This document shows, piece after piece, positions 15,848 through 26,976 of a stretch of 64,000 nucleotides of DNA. The position numbers and the translations under genes are program-made. Source of the stretch: Verrucomicrobiota bacterium (GTDB lineage Bacteria > Verrucomicrobiota > Verrucomicrobiia > Limisphaerales > UBA1096); contig JAYZHR010000137.1 in NCBI GenBank assembly GCA_036166355.1, positions 47-64,046 on the forward strand, given 5' to 3'. The notes under the pieces were generated by a model that saw only the letters and a program-made list of their open reading frames with translations, did no database searches and was not told the origin of the DNA. Within the stretch, counting starts at the first letter, position 1. Each line of letters opens with the position of its first letter.

Positions 15848-18800
15848 TTGTTTAAGTTGAAGAAGAACTATCATCTTGAAAAAGTCTGGCCTCCTTTATG
15901 GATGTCAAAGTTTTTTATTTTCTGCCTTTGCTCTTTTTCAATTATAGGATCTTGTGTTTTGGCTGATCAGGTTTTTTCGCCACCTAGCATCAAAGTTGCA
16001 TCAGGTTTTGAAGTTCGTCTTGCTGCATCTGACCCAATAGTAAAATATCCAATGATGGCATGTTTTGATGATTTTGGTCATCTTTATGTGGCCGAAAGTG
16101 ATGGTCGCAATCTCACCACAAGGGCAGCCATAGAGCGCGAGTTGCCTCGTTTTGTGAGGCGATTGGTTGATGTCGATGGAGATGGAGTTTTTGACAAGAG
16201 TACCATTTTTGCCGATCGCATGACGATGCCTGAAGGGGGGGTTTGGTATAATGGAGCGCTTTATATTATCTCTGCTCCATATTTGTGGAGGCTAGAGGAT
16301 ATAGATGGAGATGGAGTTGCCGATAAGCGTGATAAGATTCTTGGTACTATGGAATTTGATGGGAGGGCGAATCAGCATGGCCCTTATCTTGGGCCAAATG
16401 GGAGAATGTATTTTTCGGGAGGCCATTTTGGTTATGATCTAATAGGGACAGATGGGACTCGTTCCGGTTTTAGTCGTGCTGCTGGTATTTTTTCTTGTTG
16501 GCCGGACGGAACTGATGTGCAAGTTGAAGGTCAGGGAGGAGTGAATCCTGTGGATATAGTGTTTACTTCTAACGGCGATATGCTTTCGACATGTGCGATT
16601 TTTGACAGTTTTGGTGGAAAGCGTCATGACGCCTTAATTCACTGGATGCCTGGTGGATTAACTCAGAGGGTTTATGGTAGCCCATTGTTGCCAGAGACAG
16701 GTTTTCGTCTTCCTGCGACAAGTCGCTGGGGGCAGGTGGCTCCAGCTGGTTTAATACGCTATCGTGGGAAAATCTTTGGAGAAGCTTATCAGGATACTTT
16801 ATTTGCATGCCATTTTAATACTCGCAAGGTTGTAAATGTGCGATTGGAGTCGAATAATGGATCTTTTGTAACGGTAGAAAAAGATTTCTTGTCATCGGAT
16901 AATATTGGCTTTCACCCAGCAGATATATTGGAAGACGCAGATGGCTCTCTTTTATTGCTAGATACGGGGGGCTGGCTGAGTTGGGGTTGTCCGTTTTCAA
17001 AGAAGGCCAGACCTGAAATTAAAGGTGCTATTTATCGTATTCAGAGGAAAGGAGTCTTAGGTCAGCAAGATCCCAGAGGTTTAAGAGTTTTGTGGGATTC
17101 AATAAATTCAAAGGACTTGGTTTATTTGCTGAATGACCCAAGGCCGGCAGTGAGGGATAAGGCTATTGAAGTCATTATTACGCGGGATGAGACTATTCTA
17201 GATGTGCTGTCGAGTTTGATTATTGATTCGGATGATCCGGTCTTTAGGAAGCGTTGCCTTTGGGCGGTTTCAAGATTTAAGAGTGAACGTAGTCTGGTCA
17301 TTCTTCGAAAAGCTTTGAACGATCCAGATTCGGGGGTTCGCCCGGTAGCAGCTAGGTCTTTGGGTCGATTAAAGGACTTGAAAGCGCTGTTGCCTTTATC
17401 TGAACTTTTATCTGATTCTAGTCCGTCTGTTCGGGCAGCATCGGCGACGGCAATCGGGCAATTAGGAGACAAAAATGCTTTGTCATTTTTGTTTAACAAT
17501 TTGAATCCAAATGATCCTATTCATACAAAGCATGCTTTTGTTTATGCTATTGCACGAATTGGTGATTCGACTGCAGTATCTTCATATTTATCCGATAACA
17601 TATCTTCGTTCCGTCAGCAAATTGCTCTTAGGGTTCTTGCCTCTATTGGAGGAGACTTAGATTCAAGAAGAGTTATTCCGTTGTTGCGTTCACCTGACAG
17701 TAATGTTTGTCAGGAAGCACGCCGATTGATTTCCAGTCGTAAGGAAATGAAAGGAGAAATCATTAACATATTTCATGATATTATTAAGGAAGAAAAAATT
17801 AGAACTCCAGATGATGAACTTATTGAGGGAATTATTCTTGCCTTTGCGCAAGATAATCGTTTTCAGGAGATTTTGTTAGATGCTTTAAGTTCTAAAGTAA
17901 TAAAGCCCAAGATAAAGGTTCAAATTTTAGCTTCTCTTAGTTTTCTTGATACTTTACCCGACTCACTTCAATCATCTATTATTATCGGATTAAATCATCT
18001 TGAGGCAGATGTTAGAATGGAATCTCTTAATATTGCCCAGCGATTTGATGTTAAAGAAAATGTTTTGGATGCTATATTGATTCTCACACAAAATTCAAAT
18101 AATTCGCAGGTTGAGCGTACTAGTGCGATTCAAGTACTTGCCAAACATCAAGGTTATCTTAGGAGCGAATCATTTTCTTTTTTGGTAAGTCTCCTCGGAG
18201 ATAAGCAAACACAAATGATCACCGGCCGTCAGGCTGCCAAAGCTTTGGGTTTACTACGTATACATTTGCTTAATGAGCGTCAATTGGACGCATTATTTCA
18301 AATAATTTCCGAGGCTAATTCCTTCTATCTGCCGGCCTTAACAAGACAATTCACACAGGGGCGTGAGATGAATGAATCCAATGATGCTTTTATTAATGAT
18401 CAGAATTGGAATCTTTTAGGGAATAAGCTCTCTGTTGTGCTAAATAAAAGCCCAGGGTTTTCAACGCTTGGAGCGGGTCAACGTCAAAAAATATTGCAGG
18501 CTTTTTCCAATCTTAATGGGAATAAGGTTCATAAGACATTATCAGATGTAATGAAAAATAATTTTCATGGTCAAAAGAAACAAGAAACTGAAATTGATCC
18601 ATTAGTTAGGATGCTTAATTTAGGAAATGCTTCAAGAGGTCGAGTGTTGTTCTATGAAGAAAGGGTTTCTTGCGGTGTATGTCATCGGATTGGAGATCGG
18701 GGGGGTAAGCTAGGTCCCAATTTGAGTAAGATAGGAGGGATTCGACAACCCCGTGATTTATTGGAGGCAATTCTTTATCCAAGCTCGACGATCGTCAATG

Positions 18801-19039
18801 GCTATGAGTACTACGTTGTTGAGTCGACAGACGGCAAGTCATCTGGAGGTATTATCCACCGGGAAAATAGCTCTGCTATCTACTTGAAAAATGCTGATGT
18901 CCAAGATGTGAGAGTTCCGCGAGATAAGATTCATAGTATCAAGAATATGCCGGTATCAATAATGCCAACCGGTTTTGGACAAATTTTATCCAAGCAAGAA
19001 TTATTGGATTTGGTTGCGTTTCTACAGGTTTGCAGATGA
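15848..19039 (+). CDS. PVC-type heme-binding CxxCH protein: N-terminal membrane-bound-dehydrogenase-like beta-propeller, HEAT repeats, C-terminal cytochrome c domain
   Basis: FEVRLAASDPIVKYPMMACFDDFGHLYVAES and VDVDGDGVFDK/DIDGDGVADK propeller motifs. Central HEAT-like repeats are present (DPRPAVRDKAIE, DPDSGVRPVAARSLG, DSSPSVRAASATAIG). The C-terminal region carries CGVCH and a later M-P (SIMPTG). The likely true start is ATG 15902 (MSKFFIFCLCSFSIIGSCVLA signal peptide). Confidence 0.85.
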   Translation: MFKLKKNYHLEKVWPPLWMSKFFIFCLCSFSIIGSCVLADQVFSPPSIKVASGFEVRLAASDPIVKYPMMACFDDFGHLYVAESDGRNLTTRAAIERELPRFVRRLVDVDGDGVFDKSTIFADRMTMPEGGVWYNGALYIISAPYLWRLEDIDGDGVADKRDKILGTMEFDGRANQHGPYLGPNGRMYFSGGHFGYDLIGTDGTRSGFSRAAGIFSCWPDGTDVQVEGQGGVNPVDIVFTSNGDMLSTCAIFDSFGGKRHDALIHWMPGGLTQRVYGSPLLPETGFRLPATSRWGQVAPAGLIRYRGKIFGEAYQDTLFACHFNTRKVVNVRLESNNGSFVTVEKDFLSSDNIGFHPADILEDADGSLLLLDTGGWLSWGCPFSKKARPEIKGAIYRIQRKGVLGQQDPRGLRVLWDSINSKDLVYLLNDPRPAVRDKAIEVIITRDETILDVLSSLIIDSDDPVFRKRCLWAVSRFKSERSLVILRKALNDPDSGVRPVAARSLGRLKDLKALLPLSELLSDSSPSVRAASATAIGQLGDKNALSFLFNNLNPNDPIHTKHAFVYAIARIGDSTAVSSYLSDNISSFRQQIALRVLASIGGDLDSRRVIPLLRSPDSNVCQEARRLISSRKEMKGEIINIFHDIIKEEKIRTPDDELIEGIILAFAQDNRFQEILLDALSSKVIKPKIKVQILASLSFLDTLPDSLQSSIIIGLNHLEADVRMESLNIAQRFDVKENVLDAILILTQNSNNSQVERTSAIQVLAKHQGYLRSESFSFLVSLLGDKQTQMITGRQAAKALGLLRIHLLNERQLDALFQIISEANSFYLPALTRQFTQGREMNESNDAFINDQNWNLLGNKLSVVLNKSPGFSTLGAGQRQKILQAFSNLNGNKVHKTLSDVMKNNFHGQKKQETEIDPLVRMLNLGNASRGRVLFYEERVSCGVCHRIGDRGGKLGPNLSKIGGIRQPRDLLEAILYPSSTIVNGYEYYVVESTDGKSSGGIIHRENSSAIYLKNADVQDVRVPRDKIHSIKNMPVSIMPTGFGQILSKQELLDLVAFLQVCR

Positions 19040-20302: not shown

Positions 20303-21064
20303 TTAACGACGTATCCAACGAGTCGCCATTGCTACGCTCCATTGGTATTTCCGAGCGTGTTCCCGTATAAGAAAAGGGATATCCCATTTCCCATGTAGTT
20401 CGAATGAAGGGCAGAGTATTTCTTTAAGTCTATCGAGAGTCTGACTTGATTGATCACCTATTATGCTTCCGCCGAGCCATTCTTCTTTTGGGGTGTAATC
20501 TTCCATCCATGTGCAAGGGGAGGCGATTATGAGTTGTCCTTCAGAGTAAATTAAGTCGGCTAGTTGATTCAGGCATTTCTTCGGGCACGGCAATCGGTCG
20601 ATTAGGTTTGCCATTAAAACAATGTTAAATTTACCTAGATCATTGCGTAAAAACATGGCGTCACCTTGTTCAAAGCTAACTCGAGAACGATCGATTTCGG
20701 TTGGCACTCTGGCAATAGCTACTTGTTCAACTTCACCTTCGATTATAAACGAATAGTCGATTTGTCCATGTTGTTGTAGTTCTCTAGCGGTAGTAATGAA
20801 GCTATCAGAAAGGTCAATGCCAATGGACTGTTTGCAATATCGCGCTAATTCGAAGGTGGAACGACCAACAGCACAACCGAGGTCGAGAGCTCGAGCATTG
20901 TTTGGTATATTTTCTGTATCAATACATTCAGTAATGCATCGCATCGGATAGTTAAGTGCATTAGATGGACCGAATTCCCACGGCAGAACTTCGTCTGGTT
21001 TGCCGTAATGGAATAACAAGTATTCAGATAAAGCTTTTTCGGTTTCGTAAAAATCAGCGTGCAT
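20303..21064 (-). CDS. class I SAM-dependent methyltransferase, resembling the OvoA C-terminal (putative 4-mercaptohistidine N1-methyltransferase) family
   Basis: The N-terminal YETEKALSEYLLFHYG and the SAM motif LDLGCAVGRSTFELA match my memory of the standalone OvoA-Cterm family. The methyltransferase fold is certain but the substrate is not. The start overlaps the upstream stop as TAATG. Confidence 0.6.
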   Translation of the reverse strand: MHADFYETEKALSEYLLFHYGKPDEVLPWEFGPSNALNYPMRCITECIDTENIPNNARALDLGCAVGRSTFELARYCKQSIGIDLSDSFITTARELQQHGQIDYSFIIEGEVEQVAIARVPTEIDRSRVSFEQGDAMFLRNDLGKFNIVLMANLIDRLPCPKKCLNQLADLIYSEGQLIIASPCTWMEDYTPKEEWLGGSIIGDQSSQTLDRLKEILCPSFELHGKWDIPFLIREHARKYQWSVAMATRWIRR

Positions 21065-24063
21065 TAGATGGATTTGATATAGGCCAGCAAGTCGGCAAGT
21101 TGTTCCGGTGTTAGACCTGCGACGAGTCCAGGAGGCATTGATGAGGCCGGGATTTTTTCGCGTTTTGTGATTTGTTTGATTTGGAGTCTTGAAGCTACAC
21201 CGGCAGCATTTCGAATACTAATAGTATCCGCACTCTCTGATGTGACGAAACCTAGATGAACTGACTTGTCACTTAATATGAATGAGTATGTGTCAAAGCC
21301 TTGGGCAACCACAGCATTTGGGTTAAGTATGGACTGAATAATTTCAGAAGTTTTGTACCGTTTGCTGATGTCAGCCAAGTGTGGACCTTTAGGGTTTTGC
21401 CCATTGGTGGTGGTGTGACAGATGGCGCATCCTTGGCTGGTGAATAGTTTTTCCCCTCTCTTTACATTGCCTTTGGTTTTGGCAATTCGTTCAATGGTTG
21501 CTTTTTCGCCAATGGTTGAAATCCAATTTTTAGGGTCACCGGTAGGCCGAGGTATACGAATGGGGTCATTATTAATTTCTTCTTTAGATAAAGATTGTCC
21601 TTTAGGTAGTCCAATAATATTTACCTTGTGTTTGGTTAAGATTTTCTGAACCGAATTGACCATTTCTTTTGGTGCTCGGTTAAGAGAGTCCCTTAGTCCA
21701 GATTCTATTTTGTCACTAGCTTTCCATTTGACACGGTCAAAGTAAGGGCCACTGGTGTCTGGTCGAGTGCCCCACCAGCCTTCATTATAATCTCCTTCTC
21801 GGTGGTAAAGCCGTATCAGTGTTGCGAAGATTTCCAAGTCTGGTTTAGTTTTTATACGGCTAACGAGTTGATCTACAACGGTATCGTCGTGAATATATTT
21901 TAATACACTCAATGAGGTGGATTTCAGGCGGGTGTCTAACGCAGATAACAATGTGTCTATTGGTTTTAGTGCGACGAGTGCGCGGATAGCCAAGTGAGGG
22001 ATAATAGCAGATGAGTTGGGTTGGTTTTGTAGAGGTTGCTTAACCAATTGAGAGGAAGTGGCATGCGGTAGAATGTCTTTTGAAGCTGAGATATCGCCAA
22101 GGCGGCCTAAACTAATCAGTGCTTGTGCGCGGACGCGCAGATTATTGCTGCCTAGTGAATGGACAAAGGGTTCTGAGTTGAGATTATCCAGTTCGCTTTG
22201 GCGATCTGTAAGGGCACGCAAGGCAAATTCTGTAATCTTGGTCTGCTTACTGAGCTTAATTAAATTTGTTTTAGCTTCAATACCATCAAGTTGTTTGAGC
22301 GTAAAGATAGCTGCTACTCGACCTGTCAGTGGGTTGTTTTCATTAGAGGCAATATTTACAAGAGCAGTAGTGCGTTCTGGATTTCGCCCTCTACGGAGTA
22401 TTTCACGTTGAGCGTGTAGATTCTGAACTTGGCTGGGCCCCAAAAGCAATTGATTAAGATCTGAATCATCTAGTTGGGTTACATCTGGGAAAGGTTTGGG
22501 TCTGAAATTTTCAGGTACTATTTGGACGATGTAGCCGACATTTGGATGGCTATAGCTGAACCCTCCTCCTTGCCAACTTGACACATACATTCTACCACTG
22601 CCATCAACATCAATATCGGTAGGTCGATTAATAGCGAGGAATGTTTGTTGATGAGCATTAAAGGTGGCTCCGTTTGGGGTGGGATTATGGAGAAATACTG
22701 CGCTACGCCCCCAGTCACATGTATAAACAGCGTGATTAAACGGTTCTGGCCAACGTTTGTCGTGGTAGAACATCCCGCCACATCCTGACCCTCCTCCATA
22801 ATCGGCAAGCGTTGGCATAATTTCATCAGGAAAGTTTTTGTACCAAGACGGGTAGCCATATTCGCCTGTTTGAATGATGTGCGAAAACCGTATATCCCAT
22901 CCGCCTCCGTCATTTGTATTGTCTCGAGTGAAAATATTTAGGTAAGGGTCAATGCATGCATCGAGAATATTGCGCTGACCCCAGTTGTAAATTTCCATTT
23001 CGGCCCCATTGGGACGCACCCTCACAATGCCTCCACCTCTTCGGCTAAGTGTGCGACCATCTGCTCCGACCGCTTTGGTAAATCCGAAATCACCAACTGC
23101 AATGTAAATCCAACCGTCAATTCCCATTCGAATGCCGTTAGTGGTGTGATCAGCACCGCGCTTAGAAACGTAATCGGTGCTGATTCCACTAATCAATCGA
23201 TTTTCCTTATCAGCAACACCATCTCGGTCTGTGTCCTCGTAAAGTGTTAAGTATGGGGGATGTAGAACCCAAAGTTTTCCGTTGTCATAGATTAATCCAC
23301 GAGGATGGTCCATCTTGGCAAATGTTTTGATTTGATCAGCTTTTCCATCCCCATCTGTGTCGAGGCAGCGAACCACCCGTCCGCGCCCCTTTTTCTTTCC
23401 AAGAGAACCCTGTTCATCGATTCCAACAAATAATTCGCCGGTAGAAGCTGCCGTCAGGCAGACTGGATAATTGACCAAGGGCGGTTTTGCGAAAACAGTG
23501 AGGTTAAAGCCTTCAGGTGCAGTAACTCGAGGCTCGTTAGTTTTCGGTGTTGCATTTGTAGATTTTTGTGAAGCTTTTACCACCTTCCGAGGGAGATTTG
23601 GAAGATCTCCTGTGTAAGCTTCAAATTCCCATAGACTTCCCCAGTAGGCTGGCTTAGCACCAAGATAGGTGATTTTAAAATAACGGGTATTTTTTGCGTC
23701 AACCTTGTGGGGCGTTATCTGTCGTACATCCTTGTTATTGGACTGGTCGATGAGCAGTTTCCATTTTTTTAAATCTGCAGAGCCTTCAATTTTGTACTGG
23801 TATGCACCATTGGTTTTCTCCCAGATAATACGGATGTTTTGAATATCTTGTGATTCGCCAAGGTCTACCTGTAGCCAGGATCCGGGAGCACTGTTTGCAG
23901 CACACCAGCGTGTAGTTGGATTGCCGTCGGTTGCGTGTTTCGCTAGGTTACCCTTGTTAGTTTCCTCTGAGCTTGCTGTTACCTTTTTGTTAGAAGCAGC
24001 ATTTTTAGGAAAGCTAATTTTAGCATTTATATTTTTTTTTTTGCTGATGTAGCCTTGGGCTTG
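21064..24063 (-). CDS. PVC-type heme-binding CxxCH protein (F5/8 type C discoidin domain, beta-propeller dehydrogenase-like domain, HEAT repeats, cytochrome c). The 5' 480 nt have no start codon, so it is probably frameshift-joined to the ThuA ORF upstream.
   Basis: The listed ORF 21064..23583 (GTG) contains LDTDGDGKADQ/DTDRDGVADK propeller motifs, HEAT-like repeats and CAICH near the C-terminus. The same frame stays open to 24063 and encodes a discoidin domain (NLAKHATDGNPTTRWCAANSAPGSWLQVDLG...RYFKITYLG...WGSLWEFEAY) without any ATG/GTG/TTG. Confidence 0.8.
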   Translation of the reverse strand, partial: QAQGYISKKKNINAKISFPKNAASNKKVTASSEETNKGNLAKHATDGNPTTRWCAANSAPGSWLQVDLGESQDIQNIRIIWEKTNGAYQYKIEGSADLKKWKLLIDQSNNKDVRQITPHKVDAKNTRYFKITYLGAKPAYWGSLWEFEAYTGDLPNLPRKVVKASQKSTNATPKTNEPRVTAPEGFNLTVFAKPPLVNYPVCLTAASTGELFVGIDEQGSLGKKKGRGRVVRCLDTDGDGKADQIKTFAKMDHPRGLIYDNGKLWVLHPPYLTLYEDTDRDGVADKENRLISGISTDYVSKRGADHTTNGIRMGIDGWIYIAVGDFGFTKAVGADGRTLSRRGGGIVRVRPNGAEMEIYNWGQRNILDACIDPYLNIFTRDNTNDGGGWDIRFSHIIQTGEYGYPSWYKNFPDEIMPTLADYGGGSGCGGMFYHDKRWPEPFNHAVYTCDWGRSAVFLHNPTPNGATFNAHQQTFLAINRPTDIDVDGSGRMYVSSWQGGGFSYSHPNVGYIVQIVPENFRPKPFPDVTQLDDSDLNQLLLGPSQVQNLHAQREILRRGRNPERTTALVNIASNENNPLTGRVAAIFTLKQLDGIEAKTNLIKLSKQTKITEFALRALTDRQSELDNLNSEPFVHSLGSNNLRVRAQALISLGRLGDISASKDILPHATSSQLVKQPLQNQPNSSAIIPHLAIRALVALKPIDTLLSALDTRLKSTSLSVLKYIHDDTVVDQLVSRIKTKPDLEIFATLIRLYHREGDYNEGWWGTRPDTSGPYFDRVKWKASDKIESGLRDSLNRAPKEMVNSVQKILTKHKVNIIGLPKGQSLSKEEINNDPIRIPRPTGDPKNWISTIGEKATIERIAKTKGNVKRGEKLFTSQGCAICHTTTNGQNPKGPHLADISKRYKTSEIIQSILNPNAVVAQGFDTYSFILSDKSVHLGFVTSESADTISIRNAAGVASRLQIKQITKREKIPASSMPPGLVAGLTPEQLADLLAYIKSI

Positions 24064-24866
24064 CTATTCAGATCAAACGATTCGTTTTTTGGCATGACTA
24101 CCTTCATGTCCTCACGTTCTACCGCCCAAAGTAAGCCTCTTGCGACAAGGTTAAGATAACGAGGATCAGCTACGGTTACGTTATTATGTCCAATCGAAGT
24201 ACTGAAAACTCGAGTGCCATCGAAGTCATTCGTCCAAGCAACAACAGCCTTACGATTACCCTGAATGCCTCGGGCTACAATCTTAGCTTTAGGAAATACT
24301 GCTATGTTGTTGTATAGCTCCTCTCGTTGAGTAGTCCAGTTTTCAAGGCCTTTAGTAATGAATGGAACGTTATTCTCGAATTTAATTTCTATCGGTTGTT
24401 GTGGTCCATGGCCGGTAGATTGTAGTCCAATATACTCAAACCACTTGGCGTTGGCTGCCCCCAACTTTACTGGTTTTCGATAATCTCCAAACCGGTAAGA
24501 GTGCATAGCGCAATGAAGGTTCACGCCTGGAATACCCTTTAGGTGTGGAGCTATAACTCCGGCGATAATTTCAGGGTTTTTCATGTCTGCCGCACATTCA
24601 TCATGAATAACAACATCATAACCCTTAGCGTAATTTGGTTTACCGAAGATCGGAAGAGGCGGGTTAGTGCTTTTGTCATCCGAATGTGCGTGATCGATAA
24701 TAATATTTAAACGACGTTCAAGGCCTTGCTTAAGAATATCTTTTTGTTTGGCATAGTCGTGGCAACAGCCGCCGGTAACCAGTAAGGCACGTAGCGGCTT
24801 GTCTGCTGCTTGGATGTTCCAGGCCATCAAGATGGTCAATGTTATAATAAAATTTAGTATTCGCAT
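24027..24866 (-). CDS. ThuA-like (trehalose-utilisation, class I glutamine-amidotransferase-like fold) secreted protein, possibly the N-terminal module of the downstream cytochrome c protein
   Basis: Signal peptide MRILNFIITLTILMAWNIQA, then ALLVTGGCCHDY, HCAMHSY and GLLWAVE, which are typical of ThuA domains. It terminates right after an A11 run. Confidence 0.8.
   Translation of the reverse strand: MRILNFIITLTILMAWNIQAADKPLRALLVTGGCCHDYAKQKDILKQGLERRLNIIIDHAHSDDKSTNPPLPIFGKPNYAKGYDVVIHDECAADMKNPEIIAGVIAPHLKGIPGVNLHCAMHSYRFGDYRKPVKLGAANAKWFEYIGLQSTGHGPQQPIEIKFENNVPFITKGLENWTTQREELYNNIAVFPKAKIVARGIQGNRKAVVAWTNDFDGTRVFSTSIGHNNVTVADPRYLNLVARGLLWAVEREDMKVVMPKNESFDLNSKPKATSAKKKI
24032..24042 (-). 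repeat. A11 homopolymer (T11 on the plus strand) at the ThuA/discoidin frame junction; candidate slippery site
   Basis: Read directly: plus strand a-ttttttttttt-g at 24031-24043. On the minus strand this is GCA AAA AAA AAA ATA TAA in the ThuA frame. Confidence 0.95.
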
Positions 24867-24877
24867 GCTTGTAAGTA

Positions 24878-26029
24878 TTATAGGTCAGAATTGTTCAGCG
24901 CATCAAGAAGGTGCGCGGTTGGTTGATAGTTTTCAAGAACAACTATTGTTTTTCCGTCACGCTGCATTCGCACTTCGCTAACTGTAATATCAGGTGTTTT
25001 GCTGGGTGAAAATAAAATGTCATCGTGAGTAGCATTTGTTGGTGTGACAAATTTATCTGGAGTAAGTGTTCCTCCAAGATGATCACTGCGGCCTGTGGCT
25101 ACGTGTATCGTGCCTAGAATTTTTTCATCTTGAATATCCCGGCCAGAGACCGGCAAGTCTTGTGTTCCAAAGCCAAGCTCACCTATTTCTCCAGTTACCG
25201 GATCGCTTTTGAGTTTCTTATTGTGGTCATCAATAGTGGATTGTTCGCCACGTATCAAAGTTGCAGTGATGATTTTTCCTGACTCAACAGTTTGTAGGCC
25301 AAGTGTTCCATCTGCATATTGCATAATGAACTCTCCTTCGCCGCCAGTGGGAACAAAGTAGACTTCACCGGCTGGAAGGTTTGCTACGTCTGGTTCATTC
25401 TCTAGGCAAATTCCGTGGCTTTTTTGTGCATCCTGCTGGCTGCATTCTAGTTTCAGTGTGTGTGTTTCATCCTCGAGTTGGAAATCGATTTCAAAATAAT
25501 CCGCATGAGTAAGGGCTAAACGCAGTTTTTCTGCATCCCTACTGACTTCGTTGTAATCTACTGCCAAGCCGCTATTGAGAATAATGTCGTTTACACCATG
25601 CAATGTGGCGCCCCTGAAGCCGAATTGTTTTGCGAAAGCTGTCAATGGAGCTGTGGCTGAGTATGTCGATATACACAGGATGATATTATAATTGGGATAT
25701 ACATGCTTATTGAGGCTTAATTCCGATCCGTCAGGGGACATTACTATATCTGGCAGATCTAGATTGCTGCCACCGGTTTCTTCGTAAGCAAAAAAATCTC
25801 CGCCAGATAGTTGTAGTTCAGTCATGACATTGTCATGAAGTGCTTGGTGAAAAGATTCATGTGCATGTTTTTGGATAGAGAACTGTTTATTTTCAAGAAA
25901 TGCCCAATCTTTGACTAAAAGGATATCGGGAAGATCAATTAAAATACATATGCGCTCACCTTTTCTCGGATGAAATGTGTTTCGCAAAAGTCGTGATAAA
26001 CTAAACGAGGGGAATTCCCTTTGGCTCAT
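24878..26029 (-). CDS. M29 aminopeptidase-fold (AmpS/aminopeptidase T/NicX-like) metalloenzyme
   Basis: NLPAGEVYFVP, and ILGTIHVATGRSDHLGG...NATHDDILF, resemble the conserved metal-binding segments of peptidase family M29. Confidence 0.5.
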   Translation of the reverse strand: MSQREFPSFSLSRLLRNTFHPRKGERICILIDLPDILLVKDWAFLENKQFSIQKHAHESFHQALHDNVMTELQLSGGDFFAYEETGGSNLDLPDIVMSPDGSELSLNKHVYPNYNIILCISTYSATAPLTAFAKQFGFRGATLHGVNDIILNSGLAVDYNEVSRDAEKLRLALTHADYFEIDFQLEDETHTLKLECSQQDAQKSHGICLENEPDVANLPAGEVYFVPTGGEGEFIMQYADGTLGLQTVESGKIITATLIRGEQSTIDDHNKKLKSDPVTGEIGELGFGTQDLPVSGRDIQDEKILGTIHVATGRSDHLGGTLTPDKFVTPTNATHDDILFSPSKTPDITVSEVRMQRDGKTIVVLENYQPTAHLLDALNNSDL

Positions 26030-26064: not shown

Positions 26065-26976
26065 CTATTTTCGTTTGTTTTTTGGATCGAGATTTTGCTT
26101 CAGTTCTTCGGTAGTAACAGTTGATTCAAAACCGTTTTTTGGAACCTTTGCTTTAGCAATCCATAAAAGCCCATTTAGTACTGCTTTGCGAAAATTGTCA
26201 TTCCCCCAGTTCAAGTGTTTATGTCCTCCCGTGAATCCGAATCCTCGACCTCCATTTTTACGGACGTATGACCACATCATTGTTTCTGCACGGCCCTTAT
26301 TGGTTTGTATGTGCTTGTATGGGCCTTTTGGCCAGACGTAAGGGCCATTTCGAACCTTATCGCTTGGAGTGGCAACTAGGAGTGGAGTGATTTTACCTAC
26401 ACCATCGTTTCGAAAGCGCATGTTGAAGTACCATTCGTCAACTATCTTAAATGGTTTAATACCACGAGTTATCGGATGATCGGGGAATTTTTTAAAATCA
26501 GGTGCCCACATAGGATTTACAGAAAATGCGTGTTCGTAATAGCCCCCGATCCAGTTTTGCAGGTGTTGCCCAGGATCGCCTTTAGGTACTTCGACGCCGT
26601 AATGAGCGCAGCCAATACCTACTCCTTTATTGGCTAGGCTGTCTATCAGCTTGGCCCGACTTTTCTGGATGGCAGGATGTCCACCACCTCCATCGGCATA
26701 AATTAAAACTGCATCTATCCCATCAAAAGCAGAGTCGCTTTTAGGCCAACCGAAATCGTGCACTTCTGCTTGTATGTTTTTCGCCTTGTTAAGGCATTTT
26801 TTGAGCAGCAAGGAGCCTGCTCGGAATTCATGGTCTCCTGGGCCGTGGCTTGGTTTTCCTGCTATTAGGAGGATTTTTTTATTGGCGGCATCACCGCCTC
26901 CGAGACTGCCTATTATTAGAGCTATAATTAAAAGTACTTTCTTCCCAGCATTGTGCATGGAGAGAGAGAAAGCCAT
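26065..26976 (-). CDS. ThuA-like domain protein, secreted
   Basis: Signal/anchor segment KKVLLIIALIIGSLGG, then KKILLIAGKPSHGPGDHEF, GIGCAHYG and LLWIAKAKVP, typical of the ThuA family. Confidence 0.75.
   Translation of the reverse strand: MAFSLSMHNAGKKVLLIIALIIGSLGGGDAANKKILLIAGKPSHGPGDHEFRAGSLLLKKCLNKAKNIQAEVHDFGWPKSDSAFDGIDAVLIYADGGGGHPAIQKSRAKLIDSLANKGVGIGCAHYGVEVPKGDPGQHLQNWIGGYYEHAFSVNPMWAPDFKKFPDHPITRGIKPFKIVDEWYFNMRFRNDGVGKITPLLVATPSDKVRNGPYVWPKGPYKHIQTNKGRAETMMWSYVRKNGGRGFGFTGGHKHLNWGNDNFRKAVLNGLLWIAKAKVPKNGFESTVTTEELKQNLDPKNKRK

Follow-up and report, generated by a model that had tools for sequence, protein, structure and literature searches.

A conserved poly-A run probably joins two frames of one ThuA-discoidin-cytochrome c gene by slippage in marine Verrucomicrobiota

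In C. rodentium, the tssM1 gene carries an A11 run before a stop codon, slippage takes place at 20-25% and both products are needed (Gueguen et al. 2014, PMC4256274), while in Y. pseudotuberculosis tssM3 the run is an in-frame A9 and slippage gives the short form instead (PMC4256274). Transcriptional slippage also yields tau and gamma from dnaX, on an A9 run in Thermus thermophilus and in the two-ORF dnaX with A10 in Chlorobi (PMC5009743, PMC3711429). Rescue of poly(A) frameshifts by transcriptional slippage is described for Blochmannia and Buchnera (Tamas et al. 2008; Wernegreen et al. 2010), and, according to PMC3017870, slippage leaves about 30% of transcripts full-length at the conserved poly-A frameshifts of Blochmannia.

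The window analysed here, a stretch of DNA of 64,000 nucleotides, carries a similar arrangement on its minus strand. An ORF with a ThuA domain (24866..24027) ends with GCA AAA AAA AAA ATA TAA, in which the A run, the proposed frame-change site, is exactly 11 nt long (24042-24032; T11 on the plus strand) and the TAA (24029-24027) follows one codon past the run. The frame of a second minus-strand ORF (21064..23583) stays open up to 24063, its upstream limit being a TAG at 24066-24064, and a scan of this frame from 24063 down to the GTG at 23583 found no ATG, GTG or TTG. Both frames are open solely at 24030..24063, between the TAG of the downstream frame and the TAA of the ThuA frame; in a sister lineage (L028) this stretch is only ~12 nt long and essentially the run itself. 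Adding one A to the run leaves a single uninterrupted ORF of 1267 codons (21064..24866). The original prediction had listed these features of the window, all of which hold on rechecking, as does its claim that one more A, or a -1 shift, would connect the ThuA, discoidin, propeller, HEAT and cytochrome c parts in one protein of 1267 aa. The run is the longest homopolymer in the window, where every other one is at most 8 nt and about 0.03 A runs of 11 nt or more are expected from composition.

As in tssM1, A11 stands shortly before the zero-frame stop, an added A restores a long multidomain protein, and short and long products would come from one gene. The pairing of tssM1 and tssM3 is mirrored as well, the A11 of the window being out of frame and the A9 of two relatives (L007, L008) in frame. 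However, tssM slippage is proven experimentally whereas the present case is known from sequence comparison, and the runs are rare among tssM genes whereas the present one is conserved clade-wide with three frame states. The protein family, the free-living marine Verrucomicrobiota that carry it and the position of the run, at a boundary that splits a signal-peptide-bearing domain from the rest, also differ. The likeness to dnaX lies in the A9-A10 run, the nearby alternative-frame stops, two N-terminally coincident products and orthologs with the long product in or out of frame, but the gene is a different one and no stoichiometric rationale is known for it. With Blochmannia and Buchnera, the locus shares A10-A11-tract frameshifts that are retained between populations or species in otherwise intact genes under purifying selection, with an inferred rescue by polymerase infidelity. 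Those frameshifts are, however, genome-wide in extremely AT-rich, drift-dominated endosymbionts, whereas here the run is site-specific in a genome of ~42% GC.

Read as one, the gene would encode a ThuA domain, a linker with the run, a discoidin domain, a DUF7133 propeller, HEAT repeats and a cytochrome c domain. The zero-frame ORF corresponds to a predicted short product of 279 aa that ends in SAKKKI and matches Pfam ThuA (5.4e-16; 59.9 bits against a cut-off of 33.4). It begins with a predicted Sec signal peptide (MRILNFIITLTILMAWNIQA, followed by AD; 24807..24866), which was read from the translation and appears to be the only export signal of the gene. The start-less 160-aa stretch of the second frame (23584..24063) comprises a Lys-rich linker, NINAKISFPKNAASNKK, and the F5/8 type C (discoidin) domain (~23623-23982) that had been recognised there by eye and is now recovered by HMM search (Pfam F5_F8_type_C, 8.9e-22; 78 bits against a cut-off of 28.2). 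The downstream ORF matches DUF7133 (4.1e-37), HEAT and Cytochrom_C (1.9e-9) in Pfam. Its N-terminal beta-propeller-like domain (22561..23529), that of a putative dehydrogenase, is covered by DUF7133 and by TIGR02604, the 'PVC-type heme-binding CxxCH protein' model (140.2 bits, above the cut-off of 122.2), and its C-terminal c-type cytochrome domain (21070..21471), with the haem-binding motif CAICH, by Cytochrom_C and TIGR02603 (108.7 bits, above the cut-off of 68.15). The product is best read as a large periplasmic, sugar-oxidising multidomain enzyme, putatively a dehydrogenase, in which the discoidin domain would serve as a carbohydrate-binding module.

The encoded protein is an ordinary member of the PVC-type heme-binding CxxCH proteins (TIGR02604 plus TIGR02603) with N-terminal ThuA and discoidin domains. 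It has the same domain order as more than 100 homologs from Planctomycetota and Verrucomicrobiota, but the poly-A run and the split frames occur only in a marine Verrucomicrobiota subclade. These homologs (48-80% identity; 1258-1369 aa, around 1260-1300 aa) are single ORFs with the same Pfam set that span 98-100% of the virtual fusion, and their linker can be aligned with the second-frame peptide starting at the run.

The split itself recurs: an independent MEGAHIT assembly (L001) and ETNP1_MAG_3 (L107) carry the identical A11 and split despite point differences, and the A11 split is found again in at least 30-40 contigs of independent assemblies. The 839-aa ORF falls into a cluster whose 22 members, spread over at least 31 contigs, include none longer. 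The 20 members of the ThuA cluster come from at least 40 contigs; the complete ones examined end in AKKKI with one exception, and the exact ThuA protein of the window is present on at least 8 contigs. No in-frame allele of the window lineage (~98% identity, 1267 aa) was found in a set of 5.8 billion proteins. Judged from about 60 related loci, the split is real, old and tolerated.

We surveyed 60 loci spanning the junction and counted each distinct junction once. Among the 33 that carry at least A9, 18 are out of frame, in both directions, as against none of the 14 lacking such a run (Fisher p = 2.5e-4), and at least 8-10 independent frame changes have occurred at the run. In-frame junctions, junctions that need +1 and junctions that need -1/+2 all occur in the clade, and sister lineages (L002-L006, L009-L011, L110, L124) need the opposite shift to the window (+1 or -2). 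Several of the breaks beside the run involve non-A bases (GTT.A9 versus GG.A9; GAT to GT in L037; a C deletion in L124) and are thus not homopolymer miscalls. The window clade and the clade of L109, L028, L026 and L027 have equal junction length, which points to the same ancestral frameshift.

In 42 related loci the corresponding site of the linker bears a run of A9-A11. The 657 kb of related DNA contain 44 A/T runs of 9 nt or more, 42 of them at the junction and 2 elsewhere, and the run remains pure in lineages in which just 29-45% of Lys codons are AAA; the sole other KKK of the gene is spelled AAG AAA AAG. Alternative-frame tails have a median of 4 codons in run-bearing alleles versus 20, a difference confounded by GC content and phylogeny. 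In the MED-G186 lineage, which has lost the downstream half, the run has decayed. That the run is site-specific and kept against Lys codon preference points to selection for the site, not to mutational bias, and its counts, purity and decay show selection maintaining it throughout a marine Verrucomicrobiota clade (Pedosphaeraceae/Limisphaerales-like MAGs).

Wherever the contig is long enough, out-of-frame loci all retain a downstream frame of 972-975 codons, as long as in in-frame relatives. Between out-of-frame lineages, dN/dS of this part is ~0.07-0.15 and matches in-frame controls (0.137 for the window and L001; 0.13 for L002 and L009, dS 0.25; 0.10 for L028 and L109, dS 0.31; 0.095 for L034 and L038, dS 0.52; 0.075 for the window and L109, dS 1.25). 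The start-less linker and discoidin part (23584..24063) gives 0.08-0.2, and one frameshift state has been maintained over dS > 1.2. By these measures the downstream part is under purifying selection despite the frameshift.

We propose that productive slippage on the poly-A run, mainly by RNA polymerase, probably yields a short and a long protein from one functional gene. By standard decoding, only ThuA would be made, as a short exported protein that stops one codon after the run. An RNA polymerase stutter that adds one A would instead place the ThuA signal peptide and domain in frame with the rest, and the 1267-aa protein would result; ribosomes that slide -1 on AAA codons may add to the fusion. 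If the site behaves like the A9-A11 runs that have been studied by experiment, slippage might affect some 20-50% of transcripts. Since slippage would produce all frames, single-base indels at or beside the run would be tolerated. We infer that slippage is chiefly transcriptional, with an efficiency of this order, and that the short ThuA protein has a use of its own. A plain fused gene serves distant homologs (Planctomycetes, run-less Verrucomicrobia) well, which leaves the need for a separate short ThuA protein a surmise. Lineages that need -1/+2 fit less easily if the polymerase mostly adds single A's, as their fusion yield would be low.

It is possible, though unlikely, that the ribosome is the main agent, either through -1 programmed frameshifting on A_AAA_AAA or through sliding on consecutive AAA Lys codons. 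Koutmou and colleagues reportedly described ribosome sliding on poly-A in 2015. The zero frame, GC A AAA AAA AAA ATA, contains the A_AAA_AAA heptamer, a -1 shift is what would join the window frames, as at classical frameshift sites (A_AAA_AAG of E. coli dnaX; IS3-family transposases), and poly-A is known to make both ribosomes and polymerases slip (PMC3711429). However, no conserved downstream stem-loop or pseudoknot and no upstream SD-like stimulator was found, nor any conserved RNA structure 3' of the run across relatives (alifold -0.95 kcal/mol), and the folding z-score of the window sequence is only -1.85. Sister lineages need +1 or -2, which a dedicated -1 signal would leave unserved, and the run is far longer than a heptamer, runs of 9 or more having the length at which bacterial RNA polymerase slips efficiently without any context (PMC5009743). 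Thus, the lack of conserved RNA structure together with both shift directions fits polymerase stuttering better than classical -1 frameshifting, and the occupation of all three frame states likewise favours the polymerase.

Less probable still is a phase-variable contingency locus, at which slipped-strand mispairing in the DNA toggles the fusion ON and OFF and in-frame subpopulations provide the function and maintain selection on the downstream part. Such a locus would account for the three frame states in the clade and for near-isogenic pairs one A apart, namely L096 (A10, in frame) and L028 (A9, out of frame) at dS 0.012, and L110 (A10, out of frame) and its closest relative L007 (A9, in frame). 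The different run lengths in the near-identical genomes of L096 and L028 indicate that DNA-level slippage also happens, and minority in-frame subpopulations may exist alongside A11 genomes. However, frame states are fixed per clade, not mixed: no in-frame allele was seen in at least 31-40 contigs of the window lineage or in about 15-20 contigs of the L002/L009 lineage, and L124, the one variant allele within the window lineage, has moved to the other out-of-frame state and not to ON. Moreover, a single out-of-frame state has outlasted dS > 1.2, and a metabolic gene of free-living marine bacteria would be an unusual setting.

Polymerase slippage also accounts for the locus better than two independent genes would, an improbable arrangement in which the downstream ORF starts at a non-canonical ATT, ATA or ATC near 24040-24015. 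ATA and ATT codons do lie just past the run in the downstream frame of the window, and the PGAP start of one relative (HJN89974.1, or P0151; 984 aa) is equivalent to the ATT in AAA ATT AGC. However, none of the canonical start codons appears in the downstream frame until codon 133 past the start of the discoidin domain (VTASS), in other lineages the earliest ones fall inside that domain, and neither a start nor a Shine-Dalgarno sequence is conserved across lineages. Haem is attached to c-type cytochrome domains in the periplasm, so such a domain must be exported. The gene has a signal-peptide-like hydrophobic core at the ThuA N-terminus only, where the Kyte-Doolittle maximum over 11 residues is 2.48 versus -0.16 and 0.85 at the possible downstream N-termini, and the paralog starting at 15902 has its own, in agreement with what had been predicted for both; a separate downstream product would therefore carry its cytochrome c domain without a signal peptide, unlike the paralog. 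Run-less homologs are all fused, the peptides flanking the run align with the continuous linkers of fused proteins, and orthologs, whose comparison had been suggested at the outset, are single ORFs or show the same start-less split, not independent genes. By its sequence, the downstream frame is without an independent route of expression, having neither its own start nor an export signal for the cytochrome c domain.

Slippage was one of three explanations that the original prediction had left open, and it is the one that the data support; the other two are rejected on comparative grounds and are very improbable. A homopolymer sequencing or assembly error, with a true A12 and a single 1267-codon ORF, would suit an error-prone run of record length in the window, the perfect ORF restored by one A and the low coverage of some source MAG contigs (cov 4.5 for L107), but dozens of contigs produced by independent projects and assemblers show the same split, the 5.8 billion proteins include no in-frame version of the lineage, relatives are also out of frame with A9, a length that Illumina calls reliably, and because of non-A indels, and assemblers do separate A9 from A10 in the close relatives L028 and L096. 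A recent inactivating frameshift, leaving a young pseudogene and ThuA alone, has a counterpart in the MED-G186 lineage (L111, L030, L031), which shows that ThuA alone can suffice, but true loss there took the form of a large deletion of the downstream half and decay of the run to AAATAAAATAAACACCAAAAA, whereas every out-of-frame lineage keeps the frame intact over 972 codons at dN/dS of ~0.1 (0.07-0.15 even among those sharing the frameshift since dS 0.25-1.25), the frameshift being common to lineages over dS > 1.

Beyond the original prediction, these comparisons indicate that the run is conserved through the whole marine clade, with lineages in all three frame states. Under productive slippage, lineages would have settled in different frame states, which presumably alters the ratio of short to long protein rather than turning the gene off.

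The locus at 21064..24866 (minus strand) opens with a ThuA ORF of 279 aa (24866..24027), which has an N-terminus resembling a Sec signal peptide (MRILNFIITLTILMAWNIQA, followed by AD) and matches Pfam PF06283 at 5.4e-16 (59.9 bits against a gathering threshold of 33.4, model 2-209/209). The ORF ends in ...TCA GCA AAA AAA AAA ATA TAA, with the stop at 24029-24027, and its poly-A run, exactly A11 on the coding strand (24042-24032), lies inside the overlap with the frame of ORF 21064..23583, an overlap confined to 24063-24030. This second frame is open upstream as far as 24063, where a TAG at 24066-24064 bounds it, and across the 160 codons before 23583 it holds no ATG, GTG or TTG. The original prediction that these start-less codons encode a discoidin domain is confirmed by a full-length HMM match to F5/8 type C (PF00754, 8.9e-22, 78 bits against 28.2, model 2-127/127). 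The remainder of the frame consists of DUF7133, HEAT repeats and cytochrome c, and the downstream part scores as a PVC-type heme-binding CxxCH protein (TIGR02604, 140.2 bits, cut-off 122.2; TIGR02603, the C-terminal haem-binding domain, 108.7 bits, cut-off 68.15). Adding one A to the A11 gives, as anticipated, a continuous ORF, clean over 1267 codons, and the coordinates, stops, run length and start-less frame all stood up to rechecking. The A11 is the longest homopolymer of the 64-kb window, every other one being at most 8 nt.

When the virtual fusion was used as a query, over 100 proteins with lengths of 1258-1369 aa, identities of 48-80% and query coverage of 98-100% were recovered, all with the Pfam set of the window's fusion (ThuA, F5_F8_type_C, DUF7133, HEAT, Cytochrom_C). 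The linker of these proteins, ...SKPKPKSAGGKKNAKNSVPRNAATGKKVTASSEE..., can be aligned position by position, on both sides of the run, with the window's ...SKPKATSAKKK, continued after the frame change by NINAKISFPKNAASNKKVTASSEE..., and thus the second frame is coding from the run onward. ThuA-less proteins were also recovered, one of 839 aa at 98% identity and several of 960 aa at 80%. As the original prediction would have it, relatives of the gene are either single fused ORFs or carry the same start-less split. Architecture varies at the margins of the family. An in-frame homologue without discoidin (L113, MAG bin84o, JAAZZB010000006.1) joins ThuA residues 1-276 directly to 447-1267 through a linker with two A7 runs. 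In the subclade of loci L022, L023 and L105 (proteins P0014 and P0015, 936-codon downstream part), the C-terminal cytochrome c is apparently swapped for a copper-binding cupredoxin (PF00127); this would be an exchange of the electron-transfer module, the rest of the architecture being the same.

The split recurs in other genomes. An independent MEGAHIT metagenome assembly (L001) has the identical A11 and the identical split. Five contigs from five assemblies (L002-L006) share the junction AAC GTT A9 CGC TAA, and L009-L011 read AAC ATT A9 CGC CAA AAT TAG; in both groups the discoidin frame is offset in the direction opposite to the window, requiring -1 or +2 nt, and the TTG called as the 'start' of the 960-aa ORFs falls within the discoidin domain. 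The fused loci L007 and L008 have an A9 at the same place (GGC GGA AAA AAA AAC). A metagenome-contig scan and a scan of GTDB species representatives together added 112 further loci. The junction is spanned in 60 loci, from marine metagenomes and from Verrucomicrobiota MAGs and SAGs labelled Verrucomicrobiales, Pedosphaeraceae or Limisphaerales, and A9-A11 occupies the site in 42 loci. When distinct junction sequences are counted, with L124 added, 18 of the 33 that have a run of A9 or longer are out of frame, compared with 0 of the 14 that do not (Fisher p = 2.5e-4). The out-of-frame junctions include both offsets, those that need +1 A and those that need -1/+2, and in-frame lineages occur as well. 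One bin, ETNP1_MAG_3, contains the whole locus twice in the same gene order (ThuA, a 381-aa protein, then the ThuA gene with its downstream part), as L107 on JASLKL010000026.1 and L109 on JASLKL010000003.1, which are ~83% identical (dS ~1.25) and both out of frame (A11 and A9); their identical synteny suggests a mixed bin of two related populations and not paralogues.

Three explanations had originally been offered for the split: a homopolymer sequencing error, a recent inactivation, or slippage yielding a short ThuA product and a long fusion. Sequencing error is ruled out by replication across assemblies, by frame breaks made of other bases and by the failure to find an in-frame allele. Non-A indels adjoin the run in several lineages (GTT.A9 versus GG.A9; GAT to GT in L037; no C before the run in L124), so that homopolymer miscalling cannot explain those breaks. 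In the window's lineage, the 839-aa ORF falls into a cluster of 22 members, none of them longer, found on 31 contigs or more, and ThuA into one of 20 members, found on 40 contigs or more. The complete ThuA members examined end in AKKKI and the stop, with L124 as the one exception; its lost C leads to the other out-of-frame state, not to an in-frame one. Among 5.8 billion clustered proteins there is no in-frame allele of the lineage.

Inactivation is likewise ruled out, by intact downstream frames and by dN/dS. In all out-of-frame loci with enough contig, the downstream frame continues unbroken for 972-975 codons, starting at VTASS, a conserved motif at the start of the discoidin domain, and is as long as its counterpart in fused relatives; the ThuA frame of these loci always ends no more than a few codons from the run. 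Nei-Gojobori dN/dS values for the downstream part in pairs of out-of-frame lineages are 0.137 for the window and L001 (dS 0.071), 0.13 for L002-L009 (dS 0.25), 0.10 for L028-L109 (dS 0.31), 0.095 for L034-L038 (dS 0.52) and 0.075 for the window and L109 (dS 1.25). These values are in line with those of in-frame control pairs (0.03-0.31), and the discoidin segment alone gives 0.08-0.2. Frame states are clade-specific in a neighbour-joining tree. Junction length is identical between the clade of the window and its sister (L109, L028, L026, L027), so the two share a single ancestral frameshift, which has outlasted the saturation of synonymous sites. Judged from these comparisons of sequence, the split gene is real and functional.

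The downstream frame shows no means of being expressed separately. In other lineages the first start codon of this frame is found within or beyond the discoidin domain, at positions that are not conserved. Neither of its possible N-termini has a hydrophobic segment, unlike the paralogue at 15902..19039, which has a signal peptide. Cytochromes of the c type must be exported for haem attachment; the long part would therefore depend on the signal peptide of ThuA. Re-initiation past the stop is rejected, as the ATG at 24026-24024 that follows the TAA lies in the ThuA frame and opens a 15-codon ORF ending in TAA, not the discoidin frame.

Selection also seems to act on the run itself. Of the 44 A or T runs of at least 9 nt in 657 kb of related DNA, 42 are at this junction, and the run is pure A throughout even though AAA makes up between 0.29 and 0.77 of Lys codons in the gene, depending on the lineage. 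The other KKK of the window's gene, a single case, is encoded AAG AAA AAG, and the downstream coding sequences contain no A run above 8. A poly-A bias across the whole genome, as in Blochmannia, does not apply, with no other run of at least 9 in the 64-kb window and two outside the junction in the 657 kb. The MED-G186 lineage of Pedosphaeraceae MAGs (L111 3380-3620, L030, L031) has lost the downstream half after ~40 aa of discoidin, and the 40-aa remnant abuts a methyltransferase gene; ThuA persists (276 aa, 85% identity), and the run now reads AAATAAAATAAACACCAAAAA, a decayed form. This single lineage is a natural case of true loss of the long part; it suggests that ThuA alone can be useful and that the run is retained only while a downstream part remains to be expressed. 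The decay in MED-G186 and the 14 run-less, uniformly in-frame junctions may serve as a natural proxy for the effect of losing the run on tolerance of the frameshift. In addition, in-frame alleles that bear the run have a stop in each alternative frame at 1-15 codons (median 4), compared with a median of 20 in run-less homologues, a suggestive difference that is confounded by GC content and phylogeny.

The replicated split, the intact and selected frames and the conservation of the run favour the third of the original explanations. The junction is thus most likely a productive slippage site from which a short exported ThuA protein and a long ThuA-discoidin-dehydrogenase-cytochrome c fusion would both be made. 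We consider it probable that the fusion is expressed through recoding at the run, and RNA polymerase is the somewhat favoured candidate for the main agent. A zero-frame A_AAA_AAA heptamer (X_XXY_YYZ) is present within GC A AAA AAA AAA ATA, and ribosome slippage on the AAA codons may contribute, a contribution that sequence does not separate from that of the polymerase. However, RNAalifold finds no conserved RNA structure 3' of the run across 21 diverse junctions (-0.95 kcal/mol, no helix beside the run), and four single-sequence folds gave z-scores of -0.3 to -3.9 with unrelated structures. The lack of a conserved structure and the need for shifts in either direction argue against a dedicated -1 programmed frameshifting signal and fit stuttering by RNA polymerase, which is efficient on at least 9 A or T without further context and produces a ladder of added A's (PMC5009743; PMC3711429). 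Beside the run, the palindrome GCTAAAATTAGC (window 24015-24026, minus strand; L002 3921-3936) lies 5-6 nt past it, with a possible hairpin of 4-6-bp stem; it occurs in some lineages of the closer clade only and is unsupported by the alignment fold. A small hairpin GCUAAAAUUAGC directly after the run occurs in some lineages (the window and L002) and is absent in L007 and clade 2.

A rival reading is phase variation, in which slippage at the DNA level would switch the locus ON and OFF. DNA slippage clearly occurs on an evolutionary time scale, and the near-isogenic loci L096, in frame with A10, and L028, out of frame with A9, are a single A apart at dS 0.012 and form an ON/OFF pair; L110 (A10, out of frame) likewise sits next to in-frame A9 relatives. 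However, frame states are fixed by clade, and the at least 31-40 contigs of the window's lineage contain no ON allele, which is unlike classical, fast phase variation. Minority ON cells may nevertheless occur within populations.

Poly-A slippage of this kind is already known. The closest case is tssM1 of C. rodentium, in which an A11 before a stop slips at ~20-25% to give the full-length protein and both forms are required, while tssM3 of Y. pseudotuberculosis has an in-frame A9 and makes its short form by slippage (PMC4256274). Further precedents are dnaX of T. thermophilus (A9) and two-ORF dnaX genes with A10 (PMC5009743; PMC3711429), as well as conserved poly-A frameshifts in Blochmannia and Buchnera, with ~30% full-length transcripts (PMC3017870). 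The present locus resembles the tssM1, dnaX-Thermus and mxiE types in having a run of at least 9 at the frame overlap, two parts of one protein of which the second has no initiation signal of its own, and a conserved split with purifying selection on the downstream part; it shares the heptamer with -1 frameshifting systems but lacks their conserved stimulatory structure 5-9 nt downstream (or SD-like element upstream) and constant shift direction. What is new is the gene family, its abundant, free-living, uncultured marine Verrucomicrobiota hosts (~42% GC), the clade-wide conservation of a run at one site and the recurrence of all three frame states. We found no report on the association of ThuA, discoidin and cytochrome c in PVC bacteria and none of this site in searches on transcriptional slippage and Verrucomicrobia, which returned only the GeneTack paper, with its single mention of the phylum.

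Many MAG depositions list two genes, a 'ThuA domain-containing protein' and a 'PVC-type heme-binding CxxCH protein', with starts placed arbitrarily at GTG, TTG or ATT codons in or after the discoidin domain. Public starts are inconsistent (P0151, HJN89974.1; P0136, MEC7882561.1 and MED5453704.1; P0121-P0124), giving 984 aa from ATT, 960 aa from TTG or 839 aa from GTG, and ThuA has been shortened to 266 aa, with the loss of most of the signal peptide. Annotation as one recoded gene is warranted, and pseudogene filters would wrongly drop it. The upstream neighbour (24878-26029, minus strand) encodes a conserved 383-aa protein with zero Pfam matches, and 26065-26976 (minus strand) a second, separate and conserved ThuA-domain protein of 303 aa. 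L002, L007, L008, L009 and L124 share the order radical-SAM/HemN-like, ThuA, unknown 380-aa protein, ThuA-fusion locus and methyltransferase. Elsewhere in the window, a paralogue at 15902..19039 (plus strand) has DUF7133, strong HEAT repeats and cytochrome c behind its own signal peptide MSKFFIFCLCSFSIIGSCVLA and is without ThuA or discoidin; the longer, TTG-started call from 15848 is probably too long.

On phylogenetic grounds the locus ranks among the best-supported candidates for productive poly-A slippage beyond pathogens, endosymbionts, IS elements and dnaX, in organisms that are abundant yet uncultured. Its in-frame and out-of-frame alleles, with A9, A10 or A11, form a natural series for the effect of run length and frame on product ratios. 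The locus hints that the ThuA domain works both alone and tethered to the dehydrogenase/cytochrome c module of a large, uncharacterised family of PVC-type haem proteins. A more tentative and rather doubtful scenario would make the run a selected expression 'rheostat', indifferent to frame and placed at a domain boundary, that tunes a periplasmic sugar-oxidation module. Polymerase slippage would then always yield some free exported ThuA enzyme and some ThuA-tethered discoidin/dehydrogenase/cytochrome c fusion, and rare one-base indels at the run would shift a lineage between three heritable stoichiometries: mostly long product (in frame), mostly short product with the fusion made via +1 A, and mostly short product with a rarer fusion via +2/-1. 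If true, abundant free-living marine bacteria would combine transcriptional recoding with slow switching at the DNA level, a regulation that has so far been described only in single pathogen cases and in drifting endosymbionts.
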